Source: an archaeon (GTDB taxonomy: Archaea > Nanobdellota > Nanobdellia > SCGC-AAA011-G17 > GW2011-AR20). Taken from it: 64,000 nucleotides of DNA. The stretch is taken from NCBI GenBank assembly GCA_002688355.1, contig NZCT01000024.1:111762-175761 (forward strand), in the 5' to 3' direction. The first letter of the stretch is position 1, and every line of letters begins with the position of its first letter. Below, piece by piece: positions 1 through 52,815 of the stretch. The position numbers were made by a program, and so were the translations under genes. The notes below the pieces were generated by a model. The model ran no database searches and was not told the origin of the DNA. It saw only the letters and a program-made list of their open reading frames with translations.

Positions 1-1656
1 TAAACCATGTAAACTTAATATTCTAACTTTCTCTGCTATCGCATCATCATTTGTTAATAATGCTCCACCTTCTCCAGTTGTTATATTTTTAATTGTATAA
101 AAACTAAAACAAGTTATATCTGCTATTGTTCCAACATTTCTTCCTTTATACTGTGCACCAATTGAATGAGCTGAATCAGAAATAACCTTTAGATTATGTT
201 TCTTGGCTATCTCCATAATCTCATCCATCTGACAAGGTTGTCCTGATAAATCAACAGGAATAATAGCTTTTGTTTTCTCTGTTATTTTTTCTTCTATTTT
301 AGTAACATCAATATTTAAAGTCTCTCTATTTATATCTACAAAAACTGGTTTAGCACCAACATGTATTATCATACTAGCTGTTGAAGGCCAAGTTATTGGC
401 GTAGTAATTACCTCATCTCCTTGTTTAATATCCAATGCTGCTAAAGCTAAATGTAAAGCACCTGTACAAGAATTTAAAGCTACAACATTTTTAATGCCTG
501 TATATCTTCTTATTTTTTCTTCAAATAATTTAGTTTTAGGGCCAGTAGTAATCCACCCAGATCTTAATGTATCTATAACTTCCTTTTCTTCATTCTCAGA
601 TATTGTAGGTAAAGCAAAAGGTAAGAAATCTGATCTTATTGTTTTTCCCGTTACATTTGCAGGAGTATCTAGTAAATTTTTAATTGTTTTAATACTATAA
701 TATTTTGTATCTTCTGTATCTTTAATTGTATTATCTAAAATTTTCTCCTTTATCTCGCGAGAGCCAGCCTCTATTGAATAATCTGCAGTATAGCCTAAAA
801 CATTAGTTATCTTATCAAAATTAACATTATAATCTCTAGAATCTTGATCTGCTGGAACCATTTCCACTACAGAATTTTCCACTACAGAATTAATTGCTTT
901 AGCAATATCTTTAACCTGTAAATTTAAATCATTGTTACCAACATTAAATATTTCTCCTTTGACTTTCTCTTGATTTGCTTCTAATACTGTTATGAAAGCT
1001 TTTGAAATATCTTTTGTATGAACATTAGGCCTCCATTGATCCCCACCTAGCACAAATATCTTACCCTCTTTTATTGCATTCTTAGTCATCACATTAACTA
1101 CCAAATCAAATCTCATCTTAGGAGAATAACCAAATGCAGTCCCATTTCTCAATATCGTAGGATGAAAATTTTCATCGTACATTTCTAATAGTATATCCTC
1201 ACCTTCTAGTTTTGTCTTAGCATAAAGAGAAACAGGTTGTTTAGGTGAATTCTCATCTAATTGTTTTGAAATGCCAGCTCCATAAACACTACAAGATGAA
1301 GAAAATATGAATTCTTTTACATCTTTCTCTTTACAAAACTTAGCAAGTTTTTCTGTACCATCAACATTTATCTTTGTTGTATAATACGGATCTAAATCAC
1401 AAGAAGGATCATTAGACAAACCAGCTAAATGCATAACAGAGTCTATTTCATCTAATAAATTTGGATATCTTTCTATATTTTGTAAATCTCCTTTTACTAA
1501 TTCAAAATTAGGATTGTCTTTTAATTCTTCTAAAGATTCATCTCCAAAATATAAAGAATCAAAAACTCTTACTTTATGTCCTTTATCTAAAAGATCTCTA
1601 ACTAAAACAGAACCAATATACCCTGCTCCACCTGTAACAAGTACTCTTTTTGACAT
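1..1656 (-). CDS. Partial (C-terminus beyond window edge) bifunctional protein: N-terminal extended-SDR sugar epimerase/dehydratase fused in frame to a DegT/DnrJ/EryC1/StrS PLP aminotransferase domain
   Basis: Manual translation of the minus strand from ATG at 1654-1656 gives MSKRVLVTGGAGYIGS (Rossmann motif) and YAKTK (YxxxK), then continues without a stop into LPFALPTISENEEKEVIDTLRSGWITTGPK...FSFYTIKNITTGEGGALLTNDD, which are DegT-family motifs, down to position 1. The ORF track lists no separate complete minus-strand ORF here, consistent with one open frame running off the window. Confidence 0.6.
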   Translation of the reverse strand, partial: MSKRVLVTGGAGYIGSVLVRDLLDKGHKVRVFDSLYFGDESLEELKDNPNFELVKGDLQNIERYPNLLDEIDSVMHLAGLSNDPSCDLDPYYTTKINVDGTEKLAKFCKEKDVKEFIFSSSCSVYGAGISKQLDENSPKQPVSLYAKTKLEGEDILLEMYDENFHPTILRNGTAFGYSPKMRFDLVVNVMTKNAIKEGKIFVLGGDQWRPNVHTKDISKAFITVLEANQEKVKGEIFNVGNNDLNLQVKDIAKAINSVVENSVVEMVPADQDSRDYNVNFDKITNVLGYTADYSIEAGSREIKEKILDNTIKDTEDTKYYSIKTIKNLLDTPANVTGKTIRSDFLPFALPTISENEEKEVIDTLRSGWITTGPKTKLFEEKIRRYTGIKNVVALNSCTGALHLALAALDIKQGDEVITTPITWPSTASMIIHVGAKPVFVDINRETLNIDVTKIEEKITEKTKAIIPVDLSGQPCQMDEIMEIAKKHNLKVISDSAHSIGAQYKGRNVGTIADITCFSFYTIKNITTGEGGALLTNDDAIAEKVRILSLHGL

Positions 1657-1708
1657 AATACACCCAATAGTTTTCTTTTGATTAAATTTATAAGCATTAT
1701 GATGGAAT

Positions 1709-2389
1709 TCATTCAAGAAGAGAAAAAATATCATTTAAATCTCTTATTTTATCACAATCTTTTTCTGCATAAATGTCATCTTTATCAAACAAAATTGGTT
1801 TAATTCCTAAGTTTCCAGAGCTAATTATATCTTGTTCATAATCATTACCAACATATACTGTTTTTTCAGCATCCATATCATTTTTAGAAAGAACTGTCCT
1901 AAAAAATTCAGGATCTGGTTTCTCTAGTCCAACATCTGCAGAAGCTACAATAAAATCAAAATAATGAGTAATATCCAAATTTTTACAAAGTTCATGTAAA
2001 ACACTTTCCCAATTAGATAAAATACCTAATCTAAATCCTTTTTCTTTTAATTTTTCTAAAACAGAAATAACTTCTGGAAATAATACCCAATGAGCTTTTT
2101 TAAATTCACTATTTATTTCGATAGCTAATTGTTCAATATTATTCTTAATGCCTAACATGATTAAAATCTTCTTATTTTTTCCTATTAAAAATTCCTTCTT
2201 CTCTTCTTCGTTTTTTAAAGTCAATACAGATGTTTTCATATCAATGTAAAACAAAAACGCTTTCTTCATTTCTTCTTTTTTTATTTTAATATTGTGTCTT
2301 TTAAGAACATTAAGAAATACATCCTCTTTAGAAGGGTCTAACTGAACTAAAGTATCTCCAAAATCAAATAATATATTTTCATATTTCAT
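1709..2389 (-). CDS. HAD-superfamily hydrolase
   Basis: N-terminal LFDFGDTLV (DxDxT HAD motif I) and overall HAD-like layout with a C-terminal GNDYEQD motif IV-like segment. Confidence 0.6.
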   Translation of the reverse strand: MKYENILFDFGDTLVQLDPSKEDVFLNVLKRHNIKIKKEEMKKAFLFYIDMKTSVLTLKNEEEKKEFLIGKNKKILIMLGIKNNIEQLAIEINSEFKKAHWVLFPEVISVLEKLKEKGFRLGILSNWESVLHELCKNLDITHYFDFIVASADVGLEKPDPEFFRTVLSKNDMDAEKTVYVGNDYEQDIISSGNLGIKPILFDKDDIYAEKDCDKIRDLNDIFSLLE

Positions 2390-2391
2390 TT

Positions 2392-3432
2392 CTAAAAATT
2401 ATTATCAACTTCCGATTCTGCATCTTCAATAAATTTATCTTTCTCTAATGATTCTTGATAATCTTTAAAAACATAAACTTCATTCCAGTATCTTAATATT
2501 GTGCCTTTTTTATATTTCATCTCTCCAACATCTTCATTAAAAATAATTTTTCTAATCATTGCCTCAGGAGCGTTAAAACCAAGTTTAGCCCTCATGGGAG
2601 TTGTTCCAGAAACTCTTGGATTTATCTCAAAAACAGTTGGGCCTTTCTTTGTTAATCTCAGTTGAAAATTACAAGGTCCATTAGATCCAATTGCAAGAGC
2701 AGCTTTTTTAACCACTTCATTAATCTCTTCATAATCATCAACTATTGCACTAACTGTAGTACCTTCTAACAACTCACGTTTCATAGTTATACTTCCTAAC
2801 ATTTTCCCATTCAAAACAAGAGCTTCCGAAGTATATTCCTCATCATCAGGTTCTAAATATTCTTGGACAATAGGACTATCCACTATTTTCAATAAAGAAT
2901 ATAACTCATCTTTATCTTTAACTTTATGTACTCCTACTGATCCTCTTCCAACTCTAGGTTTTATTATTAAAGGAAATCCAAGCTTGTCAATCAATTGCTT
3001 AATACCATCTTCATCAGAAGCTAAAACAGTTTCAGGATAATTTAGATTATTTTCTTTAAGAAATTTATAAGTCTCAAATTTATCATTACCTATTCTAATT
3101 ACTTCTTCAGTATTTATAACAACCTTAGCTTTAGTCTTATTTTCTATAATCTCTTTATTTTTAGAAAAAATTGGTAATTCAATTGGTGGAGAAACAAAAA
3201 TTATATCTATATTTTCAGAATTACATATCTCTATTATTTTATCTAGAAATCTATCATCATTTGCTTTTGGAACAATATAACCTTTGTCTATTGTAAAAAA
3301 ACCAGTTGAGTGAGATTTTATATCAGTACCTACAATCCTACACTTTAAATTAGACATCTTAAGGGATTTAATAACTCCTTGTCCAATATTTCCTCCAACA
3401 CCTGTAATTAAAACATTAACAATTTTATCCAT
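2392..3432 (-). CDS. ATP-grasp domain protein (carboxylate-amine ligase-like)
   Basis: Rossmann-like N-terminus (VLITGVGGNIGQG), central PLIIKPRVGRGSVGV, and QEYLEP...FEINPRVSGT, typical of ATP-grasp enzymes (PurT/CarB-like fold). Confidence 0.55.
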   Translation of the reverse strand: MDKIVNVLITGVGGNIGQGVIKSLKMSNLKCRIVGTDIKSHSTGFFTIDKGYIVPKANDDRFLDKIIEICNSENIDIIFVSPPIELPIFSKNKEIIENKTKAKVVINTEEVIRIGNDKFETYKFLKENNLNYPETVLASDEDGIKQLIDKLGFPLIIKPRVGRGSVGVHKVKDKDELYSLLKIVDSPIVQEYLEPDDEEYTSEALVLNGKMLGSITMKRELLEGTTVSAIVDDYEEINEVVKKAALAIGSNGPCNFQLRLTKKGPTVFEINPRVSGTTPMRAKLGFNAPEAMIRKIIFNEDVGEMKYKKGTILRYWNEVYVFKDYQESLEKDKFIEDAESEVDNNF

Positions 3433-4288
3433 TTTTATAATCCTCTAATCCTTTTTCTAAATTATAATTTACTTTATATCCTAATTCTTCTTTAGCTTTT
3501 TCGATGTTTAATAGCATACTCGGACTTAGATCTTTCTTATCCATATCCAAAGATACTTTTAAATTACTATCTGAAAATTTTTTAATTATTAAATTAGCTA
3601 ACTCTATCATTGACGTAGATTTTCCAGAACCGATATTATAAATTCCTGTTTTTCTAGAATTCAAAGCTAAAATATTTGTATTAACCACATCCTTAACATA
3701 GACAAAATCTTGAAATCTTTTGCCTTCTTGAAATAGTTTTAAACTCTCTCCGGCCCTAACAGTTTTTATAAAAAAAGGGAGAACAGTATTTTCATTCTGA
3801 CCTTTTCCATAAACTGAAGAATATCTTAAAGAAATACATCTTAAACCATATTTATTTTTAAATATTTCACAATATCTCTCTCCAATTAATTTAGAGACTC
3901 CATAATAACCATTAGGTTCAAGTAAATCATTTTCTTGAATAGGAAAATTAACAGAGCTACCATAAACAGAAGCAGAAGAACTATTTACTAATTTTACATC
4001 TCTCTTCCTACAAAACTCTAAAACATTTAATAATCCCTTACCATTTACATTCAAACATTTCTCAGCATTTTCTACAGTGTCATTTAAAGGAATAAAAGAT
4101 CCTAAATGAAATACTGTGCCTATATCTTTAGGTAACTTATCAAAATCATCTTTATTAGTTACATCTAATTTTATTAGCTCTTCATTGCCAATAGTTGAAG
4201 TTCCTAAAACATCTAGCCCTTTATTTTTTAAACTAGCTAAAAGATATTTTCCAATAAATCCACTAGCTCCAATTACTAGAACTACCAT
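3425..4288 (-). CDS. NAD-dependent sugar epimerase/dehydratase (extended SDR)
   Basis: MVVLVIGASGFIGKYL glycine-rich NAD motif and YGVSK (YxxxK) catalytic motif. Confidence 0.7.
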   Translation of the reverse strand: MVVLVIGASGFIGKYLLASLKNKGLDVLGTSTIGNEELIKLDVTNKDDFDKLPKDIGTVFHLGSFIPLNDTVENAEKCLNVNGKGLLNVLEFCRKRDVKLVNSSSASVYGSSVNFPIQENDLLEPNGYYGVSKLIGERYCEIFKNKYGLRCISLRYSSVYGKGQNENTVLPFFIKTVRAGESLKLFQEGKRFQDFVYVKDVVNTNILALNSRKTGIYNIGSGKSTSMIELANLIIKKFSDSNLKVSLDMDKKDLSPSMLLNIEKAKEELGYKVNYNLEKGLEDYKNG

Positions 4289-4339
4289 CCAGATATAATC
4301 AAGGGTAAACTTAAAAAGTTTTACTTTGAACTTCCATAT

Positions 4340-5512
4340 ATGAAACTCTTAGTATTGACAACCACATTTTCAAGATTCAAAGGTGATTGGGTCTTACCTA
4401 GCCTAGATGTTGGTGTTAAAGAATTAGCAAAAACAAATGAGGTGCTTGTTATATCTTCTGGAGGAACAAATACTAAAGATATTGAAATTCGTGATAATAT
4501 GAAGATAATAAGATTTAATTATTTTAAAAAATCCCTACAAACTCTAACTTACACAGGCGGAATGTTAGGTTTAACAAGAAAAAGTCTACTAGCAAAGCTA
4601 CAAATTCCTTTTTTCTTAATTTCATTTATGTTAAAAGCATTTAAACATGGTAGATCTTATGATGTTATTCACGCACATTGGTCTCCATCCGCAATTATAG
4701 CAATACCTCTAAAAATATTTTACAAAAAACCAGTTGTTTTATCTTTCCTAGGCGGAGATATAAGAGCAATACCAAAATGGTTTAATAAATTAGCAATTAA
4801 ATATAGTGATGTTGTTCTAGCTCCAGTACCAACAGTACAAGAATACACAAAAGAATTAGGTGGAGAAGATAAAATATCTACTATCAAATATTGTTACGAT
4901 TATGATAGATTTGATAAAAAAGATGATATTTCTGAATTCAAAAAAGAATTTAACCTAAAAAATGAAAAAATAGTTTCTTTTATTGGAAGAATGGATGAAT
5001 TTAAAGATCCAATTACTTTTGTTAAATCTATACCCTATGTTTTAAAGAAAAACAAAAATATTAAATTCTTTATTGTTGGTTATGGATTTTTATTAGATGA
5101 TGTTAAGAAATTAGTTAAAAAATTAAATCTAGAAAAAAACGTAATAATAACAGGACCAAGAAAAGATATAAACGTAATTTTAGAAGCTTCTGACATTTTT
5201 ATTAACCTATCTCCTGAAGAAAATTTCTTTAGTGTAGCAATACAAGAAGCAATTGCAAAACATGTTCCTTGCTTATTGACAAATGCTGGTAGAACTGAGG
5301 AAATATTCACCCATAAAAAAGATTGTTATCTAGTTAATCCAAAAAAACCAAAGGAAGCAGCAGATGCTGTCATTGAATTATTAAACGATGAAAATTTAAG
5401 AAAAAAACTAAGTGAAAATGGTTACAAATTATTAAAAAAACATGGCTTTACTAGAGATGCTGTTATTGGTGGTTTAAATTCCCTATACACTAAATTAAAA
5501 AATAAGAAGTAA
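4340..5512 (+). CDS. Glycosyltransferase family 4 (GT-B fold)
   Basis: C-terminal GT4/GT1 signature region: FIGRMDEFKDP...EASDIFINLSPEENFFSVAIQEAIAKHVPCLLTNAGRTEEI. Confidence 0.65.
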   Translation: MKLLVLTTTFSRFKGDWVLPSLDVGVKELAKTNEVLVISSGGTNTKDIEIRDNMKIIRFNYFKKSLQTLTYTGGMLGLTRKSLLAKLQIPFFLISFMLKAFKHGRSYDVIHAHWSPSAIIAIPLKIFYKKPVVLSFLGGDIRAIPKWFNKLAIKYSDVVLAPVPTVQEYTKELGGEDKISTIKYCYDYDRFDKKDDISEFKKEFNLKNEKIVSFIGRMDEFKDPITFVKSIPYVLKKNKNIKFFIVGYGFLLDDVKKLVKKLNLEKNVIITGPRKDINVILEASDIFINLSPEENFFSVAIQEAIAKHVPCLLTNAGRTEEIFTHKKDCYLVNPKKPKEAADAVIELLNDENLRKKLSENGYKLLKKHGFTRDAVIGGLNSLYTKLKNKK

Positions 5513-5514
5513 TT

Positions 5515-6087
5515 TTAATTCTTAACGATTCTTAACTCATAATAAATATCATCATAAATATTTATTAAAAATTTAGACAAGAAATCTTTTAATGGAAGAA
5601 ATCTTCTAAATCCACCATAAGTAATTAACTCTTCTTTTAGCAATTTAAATTCTGCCTTAGTTTCTTTTATATCAAAAAACTTACTTGTTTTATAATAATT
5701 AAAAGAACCTTTAACAAAAAAGGATTGATGCTGTATATGACCGAAAGAACCATTAGACCATGCAAAAGGAACAAGTATTTTAATTACACAACCAGGTTTA
5801 CCAATTCTATATAATTCATCAAATACCTCCATCCTATGATCTTCTGAAATATGATTTAGAATATGCCTACAATAAATCTCATCAAATTCATTTTCTTTAA
5901 ATGGAAAAGGAGGTTTCCTAATATCGAACACCTTATCAATTCCAGGACCTTTAAACATATCAGTATTAACATATCCTTTAAGTGTATTATTTCCACTACA
6001 AAGATTTAATTTTTTTAAATCACTAGTTTTAGTAGCACCAAATTGATCATACTCTGTTTTTACATTTCTAAATATTTTTCTTAACAT
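5515..6087 (-). CDS. Putative SAM-dependent methyltransferase (Methyltransf_11/23-like)
   Basis: LNLCSGNNTLKGYVNTD motif I-like segment; the match is weak. Confidence 0.35.
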   Translation of the reverse strand: MLRKIFRNVKTEYDQFGATKTSDLKKLNLCSGNNTLKGYVNTDMFKGPGIDKVFDIRKPPFPFKENEFDEIYCRHILNHISEDHRMEVFDELYRIGKPGCVIKILVPFAWSNGSFGHIQHQSFFVKGSFNYYKTSKFFDIKETKAEFKLLKEELITYGGFRRFLPLKDFLSKFLINIYDDIYYELRIVKN

Positions 6088-6128
6088 TTTTTATTTTAAG
6101 TACCAAAAATTTATAACTATTTCCATGA

Positions 6129-6818
6129 TTAATTTTTCTTCTTTAACACAACAATAAAACCAGGAGATAAATTATTCAATAAAGAACTAGGAATTAATTG
6201 TATAATTTCTTTAGGAATAACTTGAAACTTCTCCTCTAAATAATATTTCTTCGGGTTAATCATTATTTTTTTTGTAAAATTATTCATCCTAAAGTATTTT
6301 CTGATCTTATTCTTTAACTGATTAAAAGATAATAAATAAACATCATAATCTTTATTTTTAAAAACTTGTAAATAAAAATCTGCTATTTTCTTTGGTAACA
6401 TCCCAAGAAAGGGTAAAGAGTAATGTGGTTCAATTGGAAAATATTTATTTGGTGTAGCTAAATAACATATCCCATCTTTCTTTAATGTTCTAAAAATTTC
6501 TCGTAAATGTTTCTCTTGATCTTGAACATGTTCTATAACTTGATTTGAAACTATAACATCAAAGAAATCCTCTTTAAAAGGTATTATTTCATCTTTAACT
6601 TTTTTAAATTTGTAAGTCTTTTTCTTAACCCTATAGTCAAAAGTATCAACTCCATAAACATCTTTAGAATATTTGGATAATACATTAGAAATTACTCCAG
6701 TTCCAGAACCAATATCTAATATTTTAGAATTTTTTAACTCTTTAAACTGTTCAATTACTGAAATTATCTTCCTAGCTTTTCTAGATTTCTTAATTATCTT
6801 CTTTTGTAGTTTATTCAT
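6129..6818 (-). CDS. Class I SAM-dependent methyltransferase
   Basis: KILDIGSGTGVISNVLSKYSKDVYGVD (motif I, GxGxG) followed by an acidic motif II, DVIVSNQVIEH. Confidence 0.7.
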   Translation of the reverse strand: MNKLQKKIIKKSRKARKIISVIEQFKELKNSKILDIGSGTGVISNVLSKYSKDVYGVDTFDYRVKKKTYKFKKVKDEIIPFKEDFFDVIVSNQVIEHVQDQEKHLREIFRTLKKDGICYLATPNKYFPIEPHYSLPFLGMLPKKIADFYLQVFKNKDYDVYLLSFNQLKNKIRKYFRMNNFTKKIMINPKKYYLEEKFQVIPKEIIQLIPSSLLNNLSPGFIVVLKKKN

Positions 6819-6852
6819 AGAAATTTAGTATTAGAAAAGTTATTTAAATTAA

Positions 6853-44422: not shown

Positions 44423-45295
44423 ATGAACTTTGCCTATTCCATCTTAAAAATACCTTACCAAGGTTTTAAGAGGATTTACAGAAAATTAAGACTACTAAAG
44501 AATAAAAATTTGTCCAAAGTAAATAAAAATCTTTTAGTAAAAAAATTTAAAGAAATAGGTTTAAAATCAAATATGAATTTATATGTTCATTCTTCATTAA
44601 GTTCTTTTGGTTATATAGAAAATGGTCCAAATACAGTTATTGAAGCTTTAAAAGAAGTTGTAAATAATGGAACAATCATGATGCCAACATTTACACATCC
44701 AAAAGAAATCTTTACGTTAGCTGATTTTTGTTGGACTGGATCCATACCAGAAACATTTAGAAAACAAGAAAATACATCAAGAAGTATTCATCCATTACAT
44801 TCAATTTCCGTACAAGGAAATAATACAAAGTATTTAACGAAAGATCATGAGAACAGCAAAGCATCTTTCGATGAAAATTCTCCTTTCAAAAAATTCATAG
44901 AGTTAGAAAATTCATATATTCTAATGTTGGGAACAGAAAATAATAGCATGATCCATTATATTCAAAATAAGCTCAATTTTCCAAATTTATTCTTATCAGA
45001 AACAAAAAAAACTAATTTTAATAATAGAACAATAGAATCAAAACAACATCATCCAGAATTATCTATAACATACATTTACAAAAACAAAAAATGTTCTGAT
45101 GTAGATTTTCTAGTTAATATGTACAGAGATTTAAAATTTGAAGAAAGAGAAATAATGAAAACAGTAAAAATAGGGAATGCTACTTGTCGTTTAATTGACA
45201 CAAAAGATTTTATAAAATTTGGTACACCCTATTTAGAAAAAAATATGGAAGAATACAAACAAAAATATTCAGAATTAAAAAATGGAACCAACTAA
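44423..45295 (+). CDS. AAC(3)-family (Antibiotic_NAT fold) N-acetyltransferase-like protein
   Basis: LYVHSSLSSFGYIENGPNTVIEALKEVVNNGTIMMPTF resembles the N-terminal signature of aminoglycoside 3-N-acetyltransferase-fold enzymes. In this context it is probably an amino-sugar N-acyltransferase. Confidence 0.45.
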   Translation: MNFAYSILKIPYQGFKRIYRKLRLLKNKNLSKVNKNLLVKKFKEIGLKSNMNLYVHSSLSSFGYIENGPNTVIEALKEVVNNGTIMMPTFTHPKEIFTLADFCWTGSIPETFRKQENTSRSIHPLHSISVQGNNTKYLTKDHENSKASFDENSPFKKFIELENSYILMLGTENNSMIHYIQNKLNFPNLFLSETKKTNFNNRTIESKQHHPELSITYIYKNKKCSDVDFLVNMYRDLKFEEREIMKTVKIGNATCRLIDTKDFIKFGTPYLEKNMEEYKQKYSELKNGTN

Positions 45296-46172
45296 ATCCT
45301 ACCACATTATAGCAGATGGTTACAAAACAATAAGAATTAAATCTTATAATCCAAATACACCGAAGATTTCATCTACAGAAAAAGAATTTCTAAAAAAATT
45401 TATCAAAGAGCAAAGTGAAAAATCAAAGTCTGTAGGAGGTTCTTTCTATGATGGTTCTTTGGTAGGTGCTCTAATTGATTCAATTAAATTGAAGGATAAA
45501 GAAATTAGTTTTGATACACAACAAATAAAATACTCTCAGCATACAGGGTTATACAGAAATTCTCATAGCTCAAAAATTCAAGCAGTATATGTAAACAGTC
45601 TAGTTATAACAGATGATAATATGCTTGTTTTTGGTAAAACTCAAGCTACAGAACATGATTGGATGAATCGTTTAGGAATTCCTGCTGGAGGATTACAAGA
45701 AAGCCCAGATGGTTCACCATCCTTAGGCTCAACAATATACGCAGAACTAGCTGAAGAAATAGGGATTGCACCAGAGCATCACATAAAAAAAGGAGGAATC
45801 ATTCCAGGGTGGATCAGTGGAGCAAGTAAAAGAGAAAAAAATTATCATTTAACAGTATCCTTTATAACATCTTTAAAATTAAGCCAAAAAGAGATGACAT
45901 CTTGGTTTAAACAATGGAAAAACTCAGTAGAAAATAACATAAAATCAATTAAGGTAGAATTTAAAGATTTGGAGTTTATCCCTAATGATTATAATCATTT
46001 AAAAAAATTTATTGTTGAACAAAATAAAATGGGAAACAAATCAGTTATACTCCCAAAAACTTTAGATGTTTTAGAAGAATGGGTAACAACATATAAATGT
46101 GATATAAAAAATTTAGGGAAAAATAAGGGATTATATTTACCACAACCAAAGTTAAAAAATGGAACCAGTTAA
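45282..46172 (+). CDS. Hypothetical protein with Nudix-like box
   Basis: GGLQESPDGSPSLGSTIYAELAEEIGI approximates the Nudix box Gx5Ex7REUxEExGU. Assignment is weak. Confidence 0.3.
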   Translation: MEPTKSYHIIADGYKTIRIKSYNPNTPKISSTEKEFLKKFIKEQSEKSKSVGGSFYDGSLVGALIDSIKLKDKEISFDTQQIKYSQHTGLYRNSHSSKIQAVYVNSLVITDDNMLVFGKTQATEHDWMNRLGIPAGGLQESPDGSPSLGSTIYAELAEEIGIAPEHHIKKGGIIPGWISGASKREKNYHLTVSFITSLKLSQKEMTSWFKQWKNSVENNIKSIKVEFKDLEFIPNDYNHLKKFIVEQNKMGNKSVILPKTLDVLEEWVTTYKCDIKNLGKNKGLYLPQPKLKNGTS

Positions 46173-46575
46173 ATTCTCAGAATTAAAAGAAGGAATGAAA
46201 GGAACTTATTCTAAAAAAATAACTCAAGAAGATGTAGACGCTTTCATAAAAATATGTGATGATGTAAATCCAATACACGTAAGTGAAGAATTCGCAGCTA
46301 AAACACCATTAAAAACAAAAATAGTTCATGGTATTCTAACTTCAAGTTTAATATCAAATGTTGTAGGAACAAAAATTCCAGGCCCGGGTTCAATATGGTT
46401 AGATCAAAATTTAAAATTCTTAAAACCAGTATACATTAACGACGAGATAACAGCAACATCAGAAATACTAGCAAAACTAGATAGACAACAAGTCATGGTA
46501 AGAACAACATGTACAAATCAAGATGGAGAAATAGTCATAGAAGGAACTGGTTTACATAAAATGTTAAATCCTTAA
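46159..46575 (+). CDS. MaoC-like hot-dog fold dehydratase
   Basis: DDVNPIHVSEEFAAKTPLKTKIVHGILTSSLISNVVGTKIPGPGSIWLDQNLKFLKPV shows the MaoC/(R)-hydratase signature. Confidence 0.65.
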   Translation: MEPVKFSELKEGMKGTYSKKITQEDVDAFIKICDDVNPIHVSEEFAAKTPLKTKIVHGILTSSLISNVVGTKIPGPGSIWLDQNLKFLKPVYINDEITATSEILAKLDRQQVMVRTTCTNQDGEIVIEGTGLHKMLNP

Positions 46576-47294
46576 ATAGACAATCCACCATTAACATTTA
46601 TTACTTGTCCTGTAACATAATCATTTGTCAATAAAAATATTACAGAATGTGCAATTTCTTCAGCTTTTCCCACTCTCTTCAAAGGTATATTCTCTAAAAA
46701 TTTACTTAAAACATCTTCAGGAATAGCACTTCCTAATCCTGTATCTATAACACCAGGAGCTACCGCATTAACAGTAATTCCTTTACCAGAAACTTCTCTA
46801 GCTAATGCCTTCGTAAAGCCAATAACACCTGCTTTAGCTGCAGAATAATTTGTTTGTCCAAAGAAACCTATTTGTCCAGAAACACTCGATATATTAATAA
46901 TTTTACCATAATTATTCTTAAGCATTTCCTCTACAACAGGTTTAGTAACATTAAACATACTATTCAAATTAGTATCAATAACTTTATCCCATTCTTCCTT
47001 TCCCATGTTCTTAAAAGTCTTATCTTGTGAAATTCCAGCATTATTAATTAAAAAATCAATTTTCCCATATTTAGAAATTATACTACCAATCATTTCTTTA
47101 CATTCTTCAACATTACAAACATCTGCCTTAAAAGTCATTCCATTAGTTAATTTAGAAACTTCTTCTGCATTGTCCTTATCCTTAGAATAATTTACTATAA
47201 CTTTACAACCTTTTTTAGCTAATTCCATAGCTATTACTTTTCCAATACCTCTAGAAGATCCTGTTATTAATGCAATTTTATCTTTTAATTTCAT
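46572..47294 (-). CDS. Short-chain dehydrogenase/reductase (FabG-like 3-oxoacyl reductase)
   Basis: KIALITGSSRGIGKVIAMELAKKG, NNAG, and S...YSAAK catalytic triad region. Confidence 0.75.
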   Translation of the reverse strand: MKLKDKIALITGSSRGIGKVIAMELAKKGCKVIVNYSKDKDNAEEVSKLTNGMTFKADVCNVEECKEMIGSIISKYGKIDFLINNAGISQDKTFKNMGKEEWDKVIDTNLNSMFNVTKPVVEEMLKNNYGKIINISSVSGQIGFFGQTNYSAAKAGVIGFTKALAREVSGKGITVNAVAPGVIDTGLGSAIPEDVLSKFLENIPLKRVGKAEEIAHSVIFLLTNDYVTGQVINVNGGLSI

Positions 47295-47307
47295 TTTATT
47301 TCCATTG

Positions 47308-47565
47308 TTAGTCAGATCTACAACTTAATTTTCTTAAAGATTCTATTGATGGTTTAGTTTCACAACTAAGTTTATTTATAGAATCAATTAATAGATTAAG
47401 CTGATCATTTAAAATTTCATACATTACATCTTGTTTAGATTCTGGTAGTAAAGAAATTTCATCCATAGGCAATAATAACAAGTCATGTATTTCGCATATT
47501 TCTCTTTCATTATACTTTCCATCATATTTATTTGTTAAATAAGATAATATATTTTGATCTGCCAT
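47308..47565 (-). CDS. Small acidic hypothetical protein, possible acyl-carrier-protein-like
   Basis: 85 aa; LLPMDEISLLPESKQDVMYEILNDQ loosely resembles the ACP DSL...VELVM region. It lies between the FabG-like and FkbH-like genes. Very tentative. Confidence 0.25.
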   Translation of the reverse strand: MADQNILSYLTNKYDGKYNEREICEIHDLLLLPMDEISLLPESKQDVMYEILNDQLNLLIDSINKLSCETKPSIESLRKLSCRSD

Positions 47566-47603
47566 AACTATAATTTATATGAGAAATATTTATAAGTTTA
47601 TTC

Positions 47604-48638
47604 TTATTTTCTTTCAATATCCAACCAATTATGATATTCAGGTAATTCATCTTGAAGTGAATAACCATAAGTTATCTCATTTTCCTTCTTATTAATAACT
47701 TTAAATCCTCTTTTTAAATACAAAGGTTTCATCCTCCAATTACTCTCAATCTCTTTTAAGATACCTTTAATATTTTTAGCACCTTTTTCTTTAGCATAAT
47801 TCATTATAGCAATTAGCAAAGCACTTCCAATACCTCTTCCCATTGTTCTGCATGAAACAGTTAAATCTTTTATCTCCCATTCACTTGTTCTCGTATCAAC
47901 CATAACTTCAGCAATCAAACCATAATCGCCAAATTTATCATTTAATTCAGCAACGAAAATTTCTATTTCTTTATCATCATAAGATTTCTTCAATTTATCA
48001 AATTCATATCTATTTCCCGTAACGTTTAATTCATTAGTTCTATTAAATAATTGAACAACTCTTTCCCAATCTTTCTCCTCAACAGTTCTTATAGTCATTT
48101 TTATTCCACAATTCTTCAAAAAATCCTTATAATTACCATCTCTATTCTCTTCAGCTTGCTCTCTATCTCTCTGTTCTTTCAATAAACTAACTCTATTCTT
48201 GTCAGCATCAGTCTCACTATCCAATTTCATAAAATCTAAATCTAAGATATCTAAAGGATCTTTTACTTCAATAATATTTAACCCAGGAATTTGAGATGAA
48301 ACTTCAGCTCTTTGAAATGCATCATCATCCACAAAACAAATCTCCTTAGCGGTTAAATTATATTTCTGCATTAATTTTTTAATATTATCAGATTTCAATC
48401 CCCAATTTATTTCAGCACTATCAAAATATTTCTTAATTCCAAATCTCTCAAGCATCTTATCAGCATCTTCATAATAGTTCTTACTACAAATACTATTTTT
48501 TATATCTCTTTTAGTAATTTCTTTTAAAGTTGCCTCAGTCCCAGGTTTTAATTTAACATTATCTCTATCTTTATAGAAAACAGTTCCATCCCATAATGTA
48601 TTGTCCAAATCCCATACAACTAGTTTTACTTTTAACAT
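47604..48638 (-). CDS. FkbH-like HAD-IIIC phosphatase domain fused to GNAT-like domain
   Basis: MLKVKLVVWDLDNTLWDG (HAD motif I, typical of FkbH/IIIC). The C-terminal GNAT-like segment reads TMGRGIGSALLIAIMNYAKEKGAKNIKG. Confidence 0.55.
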   Translation of the reverse strand: MLKVKLVVWDLDNTLWDGTVFYKDRDNVKLKPGTEATLKEITKRDIKNSICSKNYYEDADKMLERFGIKKYFDSAEINWGLKSDNIKKLMQKYNLTAKEICFVDDDAFQRAEVSSQIPGLNIIEVKDPLDILDLDFMKLDSETDADKNRVSLLKEQRDREQAEENRDGNYKDFLKNCGIKMTIRTVEEKDWERVVQLFNRTNELNVTGNRYEFDKLKKSYDDKEIEIFVAELNDKFGDYGLIAEVMVDTRTSEWEIKDLTVSCRTMGRGIGSALLIAIMNYAKEKGAKNIKGILKEIESNWRMKPLYLKRGFKVINKKENEITYGYSLQDELPEYHNWLDIERK

Positions 48639-49756
48639 TTTAATGCTTCTATTGGTGCTAATTTATTACCAGATAAAAATTCAATAGCTGCTCCACCTCC
48701 TGTGGATACATAAGTAAATTTACTCTTCAATTTATTTAAAACTGTTTCGGTGTCTCCTCCACAGATTATTATAGTCTTATCACTATTAGCTAAATATTTT
48801 CCTAACTCTAAAGTTCCTTTAGCAAATTCCTCTTCTTGATAATAACCTAAAGGACCACTAAAAATAACTGTATTTGCCTTATCTAAATATTCCTTAAACA
48901 ATTCAATACTTTTAACTCCAAGGTCCAAACCTTCACAATTAATATCAATATTCTCAATATCTAAATTAATATTTTTATCTTCATTCTTACAATTAATATC
49001 AATTGGTAATATTATTTTCTTACTTTTCATTAACTCTCTTGCATCATCTAAGAAATTATCATCACTAAAACTTTTCCCAATTTCATATCCTTTTGCTTTC
49101 AAAAAAACATAAGCTAACGCACCACCAACCAATAAATAATCAACTTTCCTTAACAACTTAAAAATTAAAGGAAATTTGGTTGATATTTTAGATCCTCCAA
49201 TAATTCCTACAATAGGTTTCTCCTTATTTTCTAAAGATAAATTAGAAATTTCTTTTTCAACTAACAATCCCATACAGTTAGGAATATATTTTTGTACAGA
49301 AACAGTTGAAGCATGTTCCCTATAACTACCAAATGCATCATAAACATAAATCTCTCCATGTCTTGAAAGTTTCTTAGCAAATTCTTGATCATTCAATTCT
49401 TCCTCTTTATGAAATCTTAAATTTTCAAGTAAAACAATTTTCTTATCACTAGGAATCTCAATATCAATACAATCATCCATTTTTACAAGATCTATTTCAA
49501 GAATCTCTTTTAGTCTTTCAGAAATCTTATTCATTTTCAATTTCTCATCAAAACCATTAGGTCTTCCCAAATGACTCATTAAAACAATTTGTTTACAATT
49601 ATTATCAAGAATATATTTGATTGTAGAGATAGATTCTCTAATCTTATTATCAGAAATTATTTCTGCTCCTTCATCTAATGGAACATTAAAATCAACTCTA
49701 ATCAAAACTCTTTTTCCTTCAAAATTAAAATCTTTAACAGTCTTTATATCATTCAT
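48632..49756 (-). CDS. pgk: Phosphoglycerate kinase
   Basis: KRVLIRVDFNVPLDEGAEIISDNKIRESISTIKYILDNNCKQIVLMSHLGRP matches the PGK N-terminal signature. C-terminal GGGAAIEFL matches the PGK GGGA motif. Its stop overlaps the FkbH-like start by 7 bp. Confidence 0.75.
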   Translation of the reverse strand: MNDIKTVKDFNFEGKRVLIRVDFNVPLDEGAEIISDNKIRESISTIKYILDNNCKQIVLMSHLGRPNGFDEKLKMNKISERLKEILEIDLVKMDDCIDIEIPSDKKIVLLENLRFHKEEELNDQEFAKKLSRHGEIYVYDAFGSYREHASTVSVQKYIPNCMGLLVEKEISNLSLENKEKPIVGIIGGSKISTKFPLIFKLLRKVDYLLVGGALAYVFLKAKGYEIGKSFSDDNFLDDARELMKSKKIILPIDINCKNEDKNINLDIENIDINCEGLDLGVKSIELFKEYLDKANTVIFSGPLGYYQEEEFAKGTLELGKYLANSDKTIIICGGDTETVLNKLKSKFTYVSTGGGAAIEFLSGNKLAPIEALKC

Positions 49757-49807: not shown

Positions 49808-50935
49808 ATGAAAATAGGTTTTTTAATAGAAAATTTCTACCCAACAACAGGTGGAGCTGAAAATAATTGTTTTTACTTAGCTAAAGAACTGTCAAAAAAT
49901 CATGAAATTCATATTTATACATCTAAACCAGAAAACACAAAAAGTTACGAAATTATTAACAATCTACATATTCACAGATATAAAACATTATTCAAATACA
50001 AATATTATCTAAGCTTTACACCAGGATTAATAAAAGTAATAAATACTGATTTAGATATACTACACATCCATAGTCTAGGTTTTCCTTATCATGATTTAAT
50101 AATTCTACTACTTAAATTATTCAATAAAAATGTGAAATTAGTAAACACACCACATGGCCCGTTCATGGCTCTTACCATTTATCCTTTACATTTAAAATTA
50201 ATAAAAAATATAACAGAACGCCTAGAAAAACCAATAAATAATCTTTACGATAAAGTAATTCAAGTTAATCCTTACCAATATCAATGGATGACAACTCTCG
50301 GAATTAAAAAAAATAAAATAGAATTTATTCCAAATGGCATTGAAGAAGATTCCTTTAATAAAATAAATGAAAAATTAGATTTAGAAAAACAATTAAAAAA
50401 TAAAACTGTAATATCTTACATAGGCAGAATTGACAAATACAAAGGCTTAGATCAAATAATAAAACTACTACCAAAATTTAAAGATTTAATATTTATTGCA
50501 ATAGGCCAAGACGTTGGAGATAAAAAAAGACTAGAAAATCTATCAACAAATCTAAAAGTCCAAAACCAAATTATCTTTACAGGAAAAGTTTCAGAAGAGG
50601 AAAAACTAAGAATACTACAAATATCAAATTTATTTATCTTACCAAGTGATTGGGAAGCATTTGGAATTGTAATGTTAGAAGCAATGGCTCAAGAGAATAT
50701 AATAATCTCAACAACCACAGAAGGTGGAAAATTCTTAATAAAAGAAAATGAAAACGGTTTTTTATATGATTTTAACAATTTAACCCAATTAGAATCCATC
50801 TTAAACAAAATACTAAAAAACAAAAAACAACAAGAAATCATAATTAAAAACAATCTAAAAAAATCAAAAGAATTCTTATGGAAAAATATATCCAAAGATC
50901 TAGAAAAATTATATCAATCATTAGCCCATAAATAG
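49808..50935 (+). CDS. Glycosyltransferase family 4
   Basis: MKIGFLIENFYPTTGGAENNCFYLAKELSK, with C-terminal GT-B motifs (EAFGIVMLEAMA). Confidence 0.65.
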   Translation: MKIGFLIENFYPTTGGAENNCFYLAKELSKNHEIHIYTSKPENTKSYEIINNLHIHRYKTLFKYKYYLSFTPGLIKVINTDLDILHIHSLGFPYHDLIILLLKLFNKNVKLVNTPHGPFMALTIYPLHLKLIKNITERLEKPINNLYDKVIQVNPYQYQWMTTLGIKKNKIEFIPNGIEEDSFNKINEKLDLEKQLKNKTVISYIGRIDKYKGLDQIIKLLPKFKDLIFIAIGQDVGDKKRLENLSTNLKVQNQIIFTGKVSEEEKLRILQISNLFILPSDWEAFGIVMLEAMAQENIIISTTTEGGKFLIKENENGFLYDFNNLTQLESILNKILKNKKQQEIIIKNNLKKSKEFLWKNISKDLEKLYQSLAHK

Positions 50936-50965
50936 CTATATAAAATTATTTCTTGACCAAATACT

Positions 50966-52093
50966 ATGAAAATTGCCCATATATGTCCATTCTACAAACC
51001 ATCTATAGGTGGAGTAGAACAAGTTGTAGAAGAATTAGGTAAAAGACAAATCTCAAAAGGAAACGAAGTTCATGTCTTTACTTCAGATTGGGATAAAAAC
51101 ACTAGGATTAAAAAAAAATACGAGCTTATAGATGGAATACACGTACATAGATCTTATCATTTTTTTAAAGTTGCTAATTTCGCAAGTTTTTGGCCATCTG
51201 TTTTTCTAAAACTATACAAACAAAAATTTGACATCATTCATACACATGTATTTGGTCATCTTCATGTTTTCCTTGCGTCGTTAGTTGGAAAATTAACAAA
51301 TACAAAATTAGTACACACAACACATTGTCCATGGACTAATATAAATAGATCTTTCTTAGGAGAATTATTAATTAAATTAACATACAGCACTTTCAGTAGT
51401 TTAGCTTTAAACTGGAATAATAAAATTATAGCAATAACGCCTTGGGAATTAAAATTCATTAAAAAATATACTAAAACACCAATAGAAGTAATCCCAAATG
51501 GTGTGGATCAATTATTATACAAACAAATTAAAGATAATAATTTCAAAAAAGAACATAACGTAAAAGATAAACTAGTTTTATTCTTTGGAAGATTTAACAT
51601 TACAAAAGGTCCTGATAAACTAGTTATAGTAGCAAAAGAAATTCTAAAAGAAAGAAAAGATATTGATTTTATTTTTGTAGGTCCAGATGAAGGGATTAAA
51701 GATAAAGTTATCTCTCTAGCCAAAGGTGTAAAAAAAATACAAATCTTAGCTCCAATAAGAGATAGAAAAAAAGTAGCAGAAATGTATCAAGCAGCAGATG
51801 TTTTCGCTATGCCATCATTTAGAGAAGGTCTTCCACTAACTTTATTTGAAGCCATGGCATCTCAAGTACCAGTAATAGCTTCTCCAGTAAATGGAATACC
51901 TTATGAAATGAAAGATGATTACAATGGTTTCTTAGTAAAATATAATGATCTAAAAACTTTAAAAGAAAAAATCATAGCAGTTCTAGATAATAAAACTCTA
52001 TCAAATAAATTTAGAAAAAATAATAAAATCACAGCAGAAAAATATAATTGGGATATTATCGAGGATAAAACAAATAAAATTTATCAAAACTAA
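50966..52093 (+). CDS. Glycosyltransferase family 4
   Basis: MKIAHICPFYKPSIGGVEQVV... and C-terminal PSFREGLPLTLFEAMASQVPVIAS. Confidence 0.7.
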   Translation: MKIAHICPFYKPSIGGVEQVVEELGKRQISKGNEVHVFTSDWDKNTRIKKKYELIDGIHVHRSYHFFKVANFASFWPSVFLKLYKQKFDIIHTHVFGHLHVFLASLVGKLTNTKLVHTTHCPWTNINRSFLGELLIKLTYSTFSSLALNWNNKIIAITPWELKFIKKYTKTPIEVIPNGVDQLLYKQIKDNNFKKEHNVKDKLVLFFGRFNITKGPDKLVIVAKEILKERKDIDFIFVGPDEGIKDKVISLAKGVKKIQILAPIRDRKKVAEMYQAADVFAMPSFREGLPLTLFEAMASQVPVIASPVNGIPYEMKDDYNGFLVKYNDLKTLKEKIIAVLDNKTLSNKFRKNNKITAEKYNWDIIEDKTNKIYQN

Positions 52094-52815
52094 ACTAATC
52101 CTTTCTTTTTAATTTCCCAATAATCAAAAGGTCTTTTCAAATATAAATGTTTACATTTAACATTAGTATCTAAATAAAATTTAACCCCTTCTTTAGCTAA
52201 ATCAAAACCTAACCATCTATCATCCCATGAATCTATCTTCTCATCATATCTAAATTTTATTTTCTCCATTACTTTCTTACTTAAAAAAACACAACCCATA
52301 CCAGAAAATGCTATCTCAATTAATTTATCATTCCAAGTTTCCTCATCATTCAAATACCTAACATCTCCCCAATGTCCTTGATTTTTATTCATAAAGGCCC
52401 ATGCAAAAGGCATTACTTTATTTTCTCCATTAGGCAATTGATGATGTCCAAAGTACAAACCAGAAATTGCATCTTTCCCTCTAAAAAGTAATTTTTCTAA
52501 AACATCTTTAGGAACTATAATATCTTGATCTAAAACTAACAAATAATCAAAATTATTACTTAGCATATATTCTCTTAATTTATTATGAGCTTCAATAACT
52601 CTTGCTCTCATCTTCTCTAAATATGGTATTCTTCTAACATTTACATCTAAAGACTTTATTTTATTAAAGAAATTTTCTTCTTTTGAATTATCTACAAGTA
52701 AAATTTCATAGTTCTTGTAACTTAAATTTCTTATCCTCTCTAAGAACTCGTCAAAACAATATTCATATAAATTACATACTGGAACTCCAATTAAAACTTT
52801 AGGTGTACTTTCCAT
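52090..52815 (-). CDS. Glycosyltransferase family 2-like (GT-A) protein
   Basis: LIGVPVCNLYEYCFDEFLERIRNLSYKNYEILLVDNS...LVLDQD. A GT-A N-terminal pattern with DxD. Confidence 0.45.
   Translation of the reverse strand: MESTPKVLIGVPVCNLYEYCFDEFLERIRNLSYKNYEILLVDNSKEENFFNKIKSLDVNVRRIPYLEKMRARVIEAHNKLREYMLSNNFDYLLVLDQDIIVPKDVLEKLLFRGKDAISGLYFGHHQLPNGENKVMPFAWAFMNKNQGHWGDVRYLNDEETWNDKLIEIAFSGMGCVFLSKKVMEKIKFRYDEKIDSWDDRWLGFDLAKEGVKFYLDTNVKCKHLYLKRPFDYWEIKKKGLV

Follow-up and report, generated by a model that had tools for sequence, protein, structure and literature searches.

A dense block of glycan-modification genes raises the questions of which organism carries it, what it builds and whether it is a fixed or a movable part of the genome. 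The block takes up most of a 64,000-nucleotide stretch of DNA (the window), which corresponds to positions 111,664-175,663 of the Tara Oceans scaffold TARA_SAMEA2620106_METAG-scaffold_9 (224,405 bp); with an extension to the left (L004), the stretch analysed came to 82 kb. Gene families were assigned with Pfam and NCBIfam, using equivalog and cutoff scores. The block is probably the envelope-glycan factory of a marine DPANN archaeon, situated beside a conserved S-layer/pilin cluster, and appears to be a lineage-specific expansion of about 56 kb between two GT2 glycosyltransferase paralogues that are adjacent in relatives.

Host, boundaries and inheritance of the block

A profile of the S-layer protein encoded to the right of the block, compared with one genome per GTDB species, recovered ten loci, all ten in Woesearchaeota or Nanoarchaeota (DPANN). 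The best match (63% identity) was in the complete 829-kb genome of archaeon GW2011_AR20 (AR20). The order of the right flank (the gene for a 1222-aa protein, pilin-like genes, the S-layer gene and genes for two membrane proteins) is kept in AR20 (L010/L091) and in two further Woesearchaeota genomes (L011 and L012). Only three homologues of the boundary protein encoded at 52985-53641 were found among 5.8 billion proteins, which fits a sparsely sampled lineage and not Nitrosopumilus or Pelagibacter. Judged by these genes, the host is a marine DPANN archaeon, similar to Woesearchaeota or Nanoarchaeota. The initial annotation had likened the block to the islands described for marine Thaumarchaeota and SAR11; as an attribution of host this does not hold, since the flanks match Woesearchaeota/Nanoarchaeota genomes only.

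Relatives also indicate where the block begins and ends. In three contigs from Hainich groundwater (L020, L022 and L023), the nearest relatives recovered, the GT2 genes GT2a and GT2b and the genes LF176 and LF654 are contiguous within about 3.5 kb, and GT2a has 67-70% identity to the window gene (52090-52815). AR20 has GT2b, LF176 and LF654 immediately after the S-layer block; the next 10 kb encode a VanZ protein, a toxin-antitoxin pair, a carbamoyltransferase, a PTAC protein and one AglJ-like GT2, with no comparable cluster. In the scaffold studied here some 56 kb separate GT2a from the LF block, which has the opposite orientation (an inversion); beyond the left-hand glycan genes come LF654, LF176 and then LF237 (GT2b), a paralogue of GT2a. 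As the same flank genes are here separated by about 56 kb, the island proper extends from about -4000 to 52093 of the window and GT2a is part of the flank. The prediction that the block is accessory was borne out by the adjacency of its flank genes in AR20 and the three groundwater relatives. The extent first assigned to it (1-52815) did mark an island, but its last gene (52090-52815) is flank and the block runs about 4 kb further left. In a relative with 57-70% identity (L007), GT2a is followed by a GT4 glycosyltransferase 70% identical to that encoded at 50966-52093; thus, at least one other lineage begins its island at the same place.

The AglJ-like GT2 of AR20, which is near the S-layer cluster, is 76% identical to the copy in the block. 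Near the S-layer block of another relative (L026) are PMT_2, methyltransferase, GT2 and flippase-like genes, homologues of which lie at 6-13 kb in the window. The inversion, together with this conserved AglJ-like/GT-C core inside the block, points to a history that is better captured by inversion and repeated module gain than by one clean insertion, and the idea of a simple one-step 56-kb insertion, tried against the inverted left-flank block (relative to AR20) and the conserved core, was softened. A tRNA-targeted integrative island was rejected: no integrase domain was found by Pfam among the window proteins, the boundary search gave neither an att-type repeat nor a tRNA fragment, and relatives lack the tRNA-Ser that adjoins GT2a here. 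By these sequence comparisons the block is accessory at the family or order level.

The features of the right flank, all on the minus strand, are as follows.

52090-52815, minus: GT2a, an Anp1-like GT2 of the conserved flank
52857-52942, minus: tRNA-Ser(UGA), beside GT2a
52985..63871, minus: conserved cell-surface flank (the features below)
52985-54189, minus: two small membrane proteins
54272-56548, minus: S-layer protein with S_layer_C domain
56775-59048, minus: type-IV-pilin-like small proteins
59124-60126, minus: nucleotidyltransferase and 134-aa pair
60203-63871, minus: 1222-aa protein with no Pfam domain

In public gene calls the S-layer protein starts at a later ATG (749 aa). The small flank proteins (56775-59048 and 52985-54189) have N-termini like archaeal type-IV pilin signal peptides (for example, MVQLKKGQ-IES... 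and MNKKG-IMQ...); none of them belongs to a Pfam family, and their gene order with the S-layer gene is kept across Woesearchaeota. The 1222-aa protein is kept beside the cluster in relatives at about 34-44% identity. Inverted repeats of 49 nt (59085-59133 and 60129-60177; 73% complementary) bracket the NTP_transf_2/Polbeta nucleotidyltransferase and its 134-aa partner, a pair that looks like a mobile toxin-antitoxin-type cassette; AR20 (where the partner is a HEPN protein) and L008 have similar pairs close to the S-layer block, at other positions. The gene for a LAGLIDADG_2 homing endonuclease is found immediately past the left flank (L004 20375-20681, about 12 kb left of the window). An Rfam scan gave tRNA alone and no rRNA in the stretch examined.

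The description of the block as about 50 packed, strand-switching and overlapping glycan-modification genes proved accurate. Positions 1-52815 hold 53 open reading frames (ORFs) and are about 98% coding; at least 40 of the 53 are envelope-glycan or tailoring genes, and 17 of 52 gene junctions overlap (4 bp at eight junctions, 14 bp at three, and 8 bp and 7 bp at two each), the 4-bp overlaps being ATGA/TCAT, or TTAA/CTAA where stops converge. Overlaps also occur at 4 of 9 junctions in the right flank and are therefore a trait of the whole compact genome, not one specific to the island. The genes form 19 same-strand runs with 18 strand switches, so the alternation first described is present, although in more than the 15 or so short operons then counted. 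Frequent strand switching is peculiar to the block within this window (there are no switches among the ten flank genes), and a random gene order would give more (25.4 +/- 3.5). The GC content of the window is about 28%. Over the 82 kb, GC (0.25-0.30) and tetranucleotide distance are flat and the block is indistinguishable from its flanks, a uniformity that gives no support for recent foreign origin. A scan for promoters and terminators, of a kind made for non-archaeal genomes and uninformative here, found fewer than the shuffled expectation.

As in HVR2 of SAR11 and the islands of Prochlorococcus and Haloquadratum, a glycan block lies between conserved flanks, varies in content between relatives, includes a phosphonate cassette and adjoins cell-surface protein genes. 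Known islands include those of Prochlorococcus with phosphonate cassettes (PMC8931226), the cell-wall island of Haloquadratum (PMC4535781) and replacement islands (PMC4033161). Unlike these, the block belongs to an ultra-small, presumably symbiotic archaeon and has its own precursor-supply genes, for phosphoglycerate kinase (PGK), a citryl-CoA cassette and adenosine phosphosulfate (APS) kinase. Strain-level replacement and under-recruitment are properties of the known islands, whereas here the comparison is of gene content among distant relatives alone.

It is possible, though on balance unlikely, that the block is, as first proposed, a population-level hypervariable replacement island, with co-occurring strains carrying different cassettes that are kept by phage or host-recognition pressure. 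Content between the conserved flanks is wholly different among relatives, and the island of L007 starts at that position too. L102 is an unclassified low-GC JGI contig of 117 kb, belonging to a metagenome series in which many Woesearchaeota-like loci were found. It has a phosphonate and nonulosonic acid module of about 20 kb in the order of window 24-44 kb (43-81% identity), into which an IS200-type Y1 transposase (5806-6240), a flippase and extra genes have been inserted; the IS200 insertion in this otherwise syntenic module is direct evidence of ongoing module rearrangement. In addition, run ERR594346 was assembled independently by Logan, and that assembly ends within the island, 512 bp from its edge (window 51581), a weak hint of heterogeneity. 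However, 3-4 samples yielded one and the same 224-kb scaffold with the island in it, which argues for at least one stable, abundant version, and among JGI metagenome contigs and species-representative genomes there was no relative closer than about 70% protein identity for comparison. The uniform composition and the lack of an integrase or att repeats in the searches above also count against such replacement.

These last features, the matching GC and tetranucleotide usage and the absence of mobility genes from the block, would instead suit a stable, vertically inherited clade-core envelope locus of marine Woesearchaeota, in which the empty site reflects ancient divergence or loss. Such a locus would also account for the recovery of one scaffold from several samples and for the synteny of the L102 module, whose divergence is similar to that of the flank genes (37-63%). 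We nevertheless consider it quite unlikely. Four independent relatives have no block at this site, the methylphosphonate synthase (MpnS) of the block groups with Pacearchaeota and one bacterial sequence, which indicates transfer, the PGK is bacterial in type and the citryl-CoA cassette is common to bacteria of the candidate phyla radiation (CPR). An accessory expansion, assembled by rearrangement and module gain, thus remains the preferred account of the block.

The predicted methylphosphonate module

The phosphonate genes of the block are listed below; the six on the minus strand (29404-36378) overlap or nearly abut. SAM denotes S-adenosylmethionine and PEP phosphoenolpyruvate.

29404..37658: phosphonate module, six genes on the minus strand and two divergent on the plus strand
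29404-30663, minus: B12 radical SAM enzyme
30660-31979, minus: Fom1-like cytidylyltransferase-PEP mutase fusion (TIGR02320)
31994-33352, minus: MpnS-type cupin, 452 aa
33349-34128, minus: NTP_transferase
34172-35317, minus: Fe-alcohol dehydrogenase (predicted phosphonoacetaldehyde reductase)
35314-36378, minus: phosphonopyruvate decarboxylase (TIGR03297)
36391-37149, plus: CDP-alcohol phosphatidyltransferase, divergent from the phosphonate genes
37146-37658, plus: methyltransferase

The cupin has N. maritimus (Nitrosopumilus maritimus) MpnS as its best solved relative (6b9s/6b9t, E 6e-93; 41% identity), ahead of HEPD (E 3e-65; 31% identity) and HppE (E 0.003). MpnS reportedly has a 2-His-1-Gln iron site (H148, H190 and Q152), with F162 and I184 said to hold the Gln and Tyr/Gly in their place in HEPD (Born et al. 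2017). The cupin has all of H148, Q152, F162, I184 and H190, and so do 117-120 of 120 homologues; in place of the second-shell residues F162 and I184, the solved HEPD carries Y and G.

The genes for the substrate are alongside. The mutase scored 408 bits against TIGR02320 (cutoff 319.55) and has the EDKx5NS catalytic motif at residue 260, the combination by which PEP mutases have been recognized (PMC8931226). Its N-terminal domain matches the cytidylyltransferase domain of Fom1 (5x3d, E 4e-49), and the decarboxylase scored 331.5 bits against TIGR03297 (cutoff 312.5). PEP mutase, decarboxylase and Fe-alcohol dehydrogenase are encoded within 4.4 kb on the same strand, a predicted supply of 2-hydroxyethylphosphonate beside MpnS. 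From the MpnS signature of the cupin and these substrate genes, a route is predicted from PEP through phosphonopyruvate, phosphonoacetaldehyde and 2-hydroxyethylphosphonate to methylphosphonate, which would make the predicted pathway in the block complete.

The cytidylyltransferase domain, the NTP_transferase and the divergent CDP-alcohol phosphatidyltransferase together suggest that the phosphonate may be activated as a nucleotide and transferred onto a glycan or lipid. In some relatives (proteins P0025 and P0028) the NTP_transferase and MpnS are fused in a protein of about 710 aa, and the corresponding window genes overlap by 4 bp; these arrangements suggest that nucleotide activation and the synthesis of methylphosphonate are functionally coupled.

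The set resembles the methylphosphonate cluster of N. maritimus, which, with its MpnS, was reportedly described by Metcalf et al. 2012 and Born et al. 2017. There too PEP mutase, decarboxylase, Fe-alcohol dehydrogenase and the MpnS cupin are encoded amid genes for nucleotidyltransferases and glycosyltransferases. The two MpnS proteins agree in their iron-ligand and second-shell residues, and a methylphosphonate ester attached to a surface polymer is the presumed product. The window set differs in its 41% identity, its DPANN host, the Fom1-like domain on the mutase and the linked B12 and SPASM radical SAM enzymes.

A related set occurs on a 'Candidatus Pacearchaeota' contig from the same Tara run (L100), with genes for MpnS, the mutase, a SPASM enzyme, the decarboxylase, the dehydrogenase, sulfatase-family proteins and glycosyltransferases. 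This version has two sulfatase-family transferases, whereas none is beside the phosphonate set of the window. Its SPASM enzyme (12723-14243), which is encoded between PEP mutase and decarboxylase, is 64% identical to that encoded at window 22700-24217, and this points to a possible role for the SPASM radical SAM enzyme in phosphonate tailoring. A protein from a Nanoarchaeota metagenome-assembled genome is 56% identical to the window MpnS. The latter groups with these DPANN proteins and also with a sequence on a 1.1-Mb bacterial contig, indicating that the gene has moved between domains. The marine phosphonate surveys consulted (PMC9381506, PMC8931226) name, as known or predicted producers or as carriers of MpnS, Thaumarchaeota, a 'Crenarchaeota archaeon', SAR11 and a few other bacteria; DPANN are not among them. 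In the literature searched, coverage of which was incomplete, no report joining DPANN with methylphosphonate, PEP mutase or phosphonate was found, and this is absence of evidence only.

The genes might alternatively make a free small molecule, either a fosfomycin-like antibiotic or secreted methylphosphonate, and not a glycan decoration. The mutase fusion, decarboxylase, Fe-alcohol dehydrogenase, B12 radical SAM enzyme and cupin mirror Fom1, Fom2, FomC, Fom3 and Fom4, the products of the Streptomyces genes fom1, fom2, fomC, fom3 and fom4, down to the position of the B12 radical SAM gene next to the mutase. However, the cupin bears the MpnS signature and is not an HppE epoxidase, and the best matches of the B12 enzyme (29404-30663) are HpnJ, PhpK and AprD4, all sub-threshold, with no specific assignment to Fom3; on these two grounds a fosfomycin-type cluster was rejected. 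The whole set is, moreover, embedded among glycosyltransferase and nonulosonic acid genes, and it is paired with a CDP-alcohol phosphotransferase and with nucleotidyltransferases, one of which is fused to MpnS in some relatives. A free product is therefore very unlikely, and a methylphosphonate attached to the envelope is the reading followed below.

Sugars, acyl donors and the glycosylation core

The remaining genes of the block would build and decorate the glycan itself. There are nine glycosyltransferases (four GT4, three GT2, one PMT_2 of type GT-C and one like BFO_1060/Glyphos_transf), besides a PseG-like hydrolase. Five extended and one FabG-like classical short-chain dehydrogenase/reductase (SDR) enzymes are encoded, with three class-I SAM methyltransferases, two CDP-alcohol phosphatidyltransferases, an APS kinase and three acyl-group enzymes (one GNAT, one AAC(3)-like acyltransferase and one FkbH). 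Two DegT aminotransferase domains were counted, one fewer than the aminotransferases first proposed. The four radical SAM enzymes of the initial annotation were all recovered, each with CxxxCxxC, three having a B12-binding domain and one SPASM. Outside the phosphonate module, the features are as follows.

1..5512: Module A, nucleotide-sugar tailoring (Pfam, NCBIfam)
1-1656, minus: SDR+DegT fusion, full length 750 aa, extending past the left edge of the window
1709-2389: HAD phosphatase, Module A
2392-3432: ATP-grasp ligase, Module A
3425-4288: SDR, Module A
4340-5512: GT4, Module A
5515..13093: Module B, lipid-linked or outside-membrane glycosylation core (Pfam, NCBIfam), which includes two class-I methyltransferases
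6853-8292: B12 radical SAM enzyme, Module B
8712-10436: PMT_2 GT-C transferase, Module B
10524-11468: AglJ-like polyprenyl-phosphate hexose synthase GT2, Module B
11461-12129: CDP-alcohol phosphatidyltransferase, Module B
12116-13093: flippase-like LPG_synthase_TM protein, Module B
13139..19043, plus: single operon, APS kinase through CMP-sugar synthetase
13139-13663, plus: APS kinase (TIGR00455, 185 bits, cutoff 138.7)
13715-15541, plus: 608-aa surface-carbohydrate transferase of BFO_1060/TIGR04396 type
15543-16730, plus: ATP-grasp_2+Citrate_bind protein, citryl-CoA trio
16681-17598, plus: CoA_binding+Ligase_CoA protein, citryl-CoA trio
17600-18331, plus: citryl-CoA lyase (NF004869, 245.7 bits, cutoff 212)
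18309-19043, plus: CMP-sugar synthetase, CTP_transf_3 family
19044..21909: amino-sugar set
19044-19577: PseH-like GNAT
19629-20654: GFO/IDH/MocA sugar 3-dehydrogenase-like protein
20656-21909: DegT aminotransferase
22280-22684: HxlR regulator
22700-24217: SPASM radical SAM enzyme
24211-26340: 709-aa KedN5-like B12 radical SAM C-methyltransferase
26359-27405: NeuB-family nonulosonic acid synthase
27438-28421: PseG-like hydrolase
28456-29403: GalE/TviC-like SDR
37655-38626: GT2
38656-40218: 520-aa polysaccharide-deacetylase-like protein
40241-41254: PseB-like UDP-GlcNAc 4,6-dehydratase
41251-42303: GT4
42305-43384: WecB non-hydrolysing 2-epimerase (TIGR00236, 375 bits, cutoff 210)
43415-44389: SDR 4,6-dehydratase-like protein
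44423..49756: N-acyl (glyceroyl/hydroxyacyl) module
44423-45295: AAC(3)-like N-acyltransferase, N-acyl module
45282-46172: 296-aa weakly Nudix-like protein, N-acyl module
46159-46575: MaoC dehydratase, N-acyl module
46572-47294: FabG-like reductase, N-acyl module
47308-47565: 85-aa ORF, candidate carrier protein, N-acyl module
47604-48638: FkbH-domain protein (TIGR01686, 217 bits, cutoff 147)
48632-49756: bacterial-type PGK, overlapping the FkbH gene by 7 bp
49808..52093, plus: two GT4 glycosyltransferases, the final genes of the island proper

Module A, which includes a match to PRK12767.1-1 (353 bits, cutoff 218), runs on past the left edge of the window, where four further glycan genes were found: the remainder of the SDR+DegT fusion, a GT4, a Wzx-type flippase and an NTP_transferase. 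Searches of PDB sequences with the 608-aa, 520-aa and SPASM proteins gave no informative relatives. A 36-nt motif is common to the three B12 radical SAM genes (7649-7684, 25679-25714 and 30113-30148; 69-86% identity), about 600-650 nt past each start (approximately codons 190-215) and around or just N-terminal of CxxxCxxC. The three genes are consistent with paralogues that diversified inside the island.

The product of the nonulosonic acid genes is predicted, as far as the evidence goes, to be pseudaminic-acid-like. The candidates are spread over about 22 kb (window 18-41 kb) on both strands, with scores of 253 bits for PseB (cutoff 408), 230 for PseC (423), 47 for PseH (93), 122 for PseG (154) and 285 for PseI (340). 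The synthase (26359-27405) matches NeuB, at 358 bits, better than PseI, and the cytidylyltransferase (18309-19043) has weak KdsB-like matches only. With scores below the cutoffs, the exact nonulosonic acid is uncertain. In the Pse/Leg pathways of bacterial flagellin and of archaeal S-layer or archaellin there are likewise PseB-, PseC-, PseH-, PseG- and NeuB/PseI-like enzymes and a CMP-sugar synthetase, with the option of a glycerate-derived N-acyl group through FkbH; in contrast to those pathways, all matches here are sub-equivalog, the synthase is nearer NeuB and the genes are scattered on both strands.

A 2,3-diamino sugar would be formed by the GFO/IDH/MocA 3-dehydrogenase-like enzyme, the DegT aminotransferase and the true WecB 2-epimerase. 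The diamino-uronic acid proposed earlier is thus upheld in its diamino part by the 3-dehydrogenase and aminotransferase and not in its uronic part, as no UDP-sugar 6-dehydrogenase was found in the window. Nonulosonic acid, glyceroyl, methyl and phosphonate groups, also foreseen from the sequence, are each backed by specific enzyme families. The possible sulfate group fared worse, APS kinase alone being found: no sulfotransferase was detected by Pfam to E 1 or by a motif for the loop that binds 3'-phosphoadenosine 5'-phosphosulfate, although unassigned domains may still hold one. A single-sequence AlphaFold model of the 608-aa transferase, in which a hidden sulfotransferase domain was sought, was unusable (mean pLDDT, the predicted local distance difference test score, 36).

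The product of phosphoglycerate kinase, 1,3-bisphosphoglycerate, is the compound from which FkbH enzymes load a glyceryl unit. In the island the PGK gene and that for FkbH overlap by 7 bp, as though the kinase had been taken on to provide this compound; the best PDB matches of the kinase are from Bacillus and Thermotoga (265 bits), whereas Pyrococcus gave 160 bits. The FabG-like, MaoC and AAC(3)-like proteins plausibly complete an N-acylation module. No carrier-protein match for the 85-aa ORF beside FkbH was obtained in domain searches. At two successive gene junctions of this module (45270-45300 and 46147-46177) a 31-nt sequence is 84% identical; both are 14-bp start/stop overlaps (ATGGAACCAACTAA and ATGGAACCAGTTAA), and each downstream protein starts Met-Glu-Pro.

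Acetyl groups may have a source of their own. The synthetase subunits encoded at 15543-17598 scored just under succinyl-CoA ligase cutoffs and the lyase scored above its own, giving a putative citryl-CoA activity. In the two-step citrate cleavage of Hydrogenobacter, and in ATP-citrate lyase, the same three-protein domain set is found, including the citrate-synthase C-terminal domain; here, unlike in Hydrogenobacter, it is a compact, portable three-gene cassette in a glycan operon, and elsewhere it lies outside any glycan or reverse tricarboxylic acid cycle context. The same cassette, in the same order, occurs in groundwater Nanoarchaeota (L105 and L106) and in CPR Harrisonbacteria (L107 and L108), away from glycan genes, and its homologues have been named from Aenigmarchaeota, Nanoarchaeota and several CPR phyla. 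At the two CPR loci a GNAT acetyltransferase gene follows it. A glycan-specific acyl-activating system was rejected as the main interpretation of the trio since the identical cassette is found in Nanoarchaeota and CPR off glycan genes. It is read as a putative portable citrate-to-acetyl-CoA module of ultra-small symbionts that was wired into this operon; that it feeds the N-acetyltransferases is speculation. Among the results that a limited literature search listed, no paper tied the cassette to DPANN or CPR.

Although the bacterial-type best matches of several genes (for example, PGK, FkbH and the AAC(3)-like protein) could suggest an assembly or binning chimera of bacterial or thaumarchaeal glycan genes with a DPANN flank, this can hardly be so, as both flanks are Woesearchaeota-like, the right junction is spanned by an independent assembly and recurs in L007, composition is uniform over 82 kb and a related module lies on another low-GC contig.

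A proposed route to the envelope and its meaning

The following scheme was drawn from enzyme families. The expansion would have been built by module gain and rearrangement around a core of polyprenyl-phosphate hexose synthase, flippase-like protein and GT-C transferase. UDP-GlcNAc may be converted by the PseB-, PseC-, PseH-, PseG- and NeuB-like enzymes to a nonulosonic acid of the pseudaminic acid type, for which the cytidylyltransferase would provide CMP activation. Its amino groups would be acylated with acetyl and with a glycerate-derived acyl group, the latter loaded by FkbH from 1,3-bisphosphoglycerate made by the island PGK. PEP would be taken by way of phosphonopyruvate and phosphonoacetaldehyde to 2-hydroxyethylphosphonate, from which the MpnS-type oxygenase would form methylphosphonate; the Fom1-like domain and adjacent NTP_transferase may activate this phosphonate, and the CDP-alcohol phosphotransferase may esterify it onto glycan or lipid. 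Methyl groups would be contributed by SAM and B12-radical-SAM methyltransferases. The GT4 and GT2 enzymes presumably assemble the glycan on a lipid carrier, the Wzx-type flippase would export it, and either the GT-C enzyme or an oligosaccharyltransferase encoded elsewhere would attach it to S-layer, pilins or lipid.

Several observations weigh against this account of an accessory envelope-glycan factory. No oligosaccharyltransferase was seen in the 82 kb examined. Neither the S-layer protein (8 observed, 8.9 +/- 2.6 expected) nor the flank proteins are enriched in N-glycosylation sequons, and in the 1222-aa protein such sequons (N-X-S/T) are strongly depleted (4 observed, 13.5 +/- 3.3 expected). 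There is a candidate for every Pse step, PseC/LegC-like aminotransferases included, with all of them under the NCBIfam equivalog cutoffs. Some of the 56 kb may consist of ancestral glycan genes that were rearranged and not inserted. Finally, the relatives with an empty site are distant (35-70% protein identity) and from groundwater, so the block can be called accessory only at the family or order level.

Systems of this kind are known, and the novelty lies in the host, a DPANN archaeon of reduced genome with a complete predicted methylphosphonate pathway and precursor-supply genes. The island would bring its own supply of precursors, with PGK feeding FkbH and the citryl-CoA cassette making acetyl-CoA from scavenged citrate. 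Its unassigned tailoring enzymes are also of interest for discovery, in particular the three B12 radical SAM enzymes, the SPASM radical SAM enzyme and the 608-aa transferase, which has no solved relative.

Methylphosphonate breakdown is a leading explanation of methane supersaturation in oxygenated water. Woesearchaeota- or Pacearchaeota-like DPANN archaea may be unrecognized producers of methylphosphonate in the ocean and in groundwater, displaying it with nonulosonic acids on their surface, a proposal that is held tentatively and with somewhat more doubt than belief. A full MpnS pathway in DPANN would add a source lineage and possibly extend the question from the ocean to aquifers.

Minimal genomes characterize DPANN archaea, which are believed to live in attachment to hosts. 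The island makes up about a quarter of the 224-kb scaffold and, if its assignment is true, so heavy an investment in the surface fits a host-dependent cell that invests in its host interface. A 56-kb glycan island would show where a DPANN genome spends its coding capacity, and it points to the cell surface as a likely determinant of interaction with host or virus.

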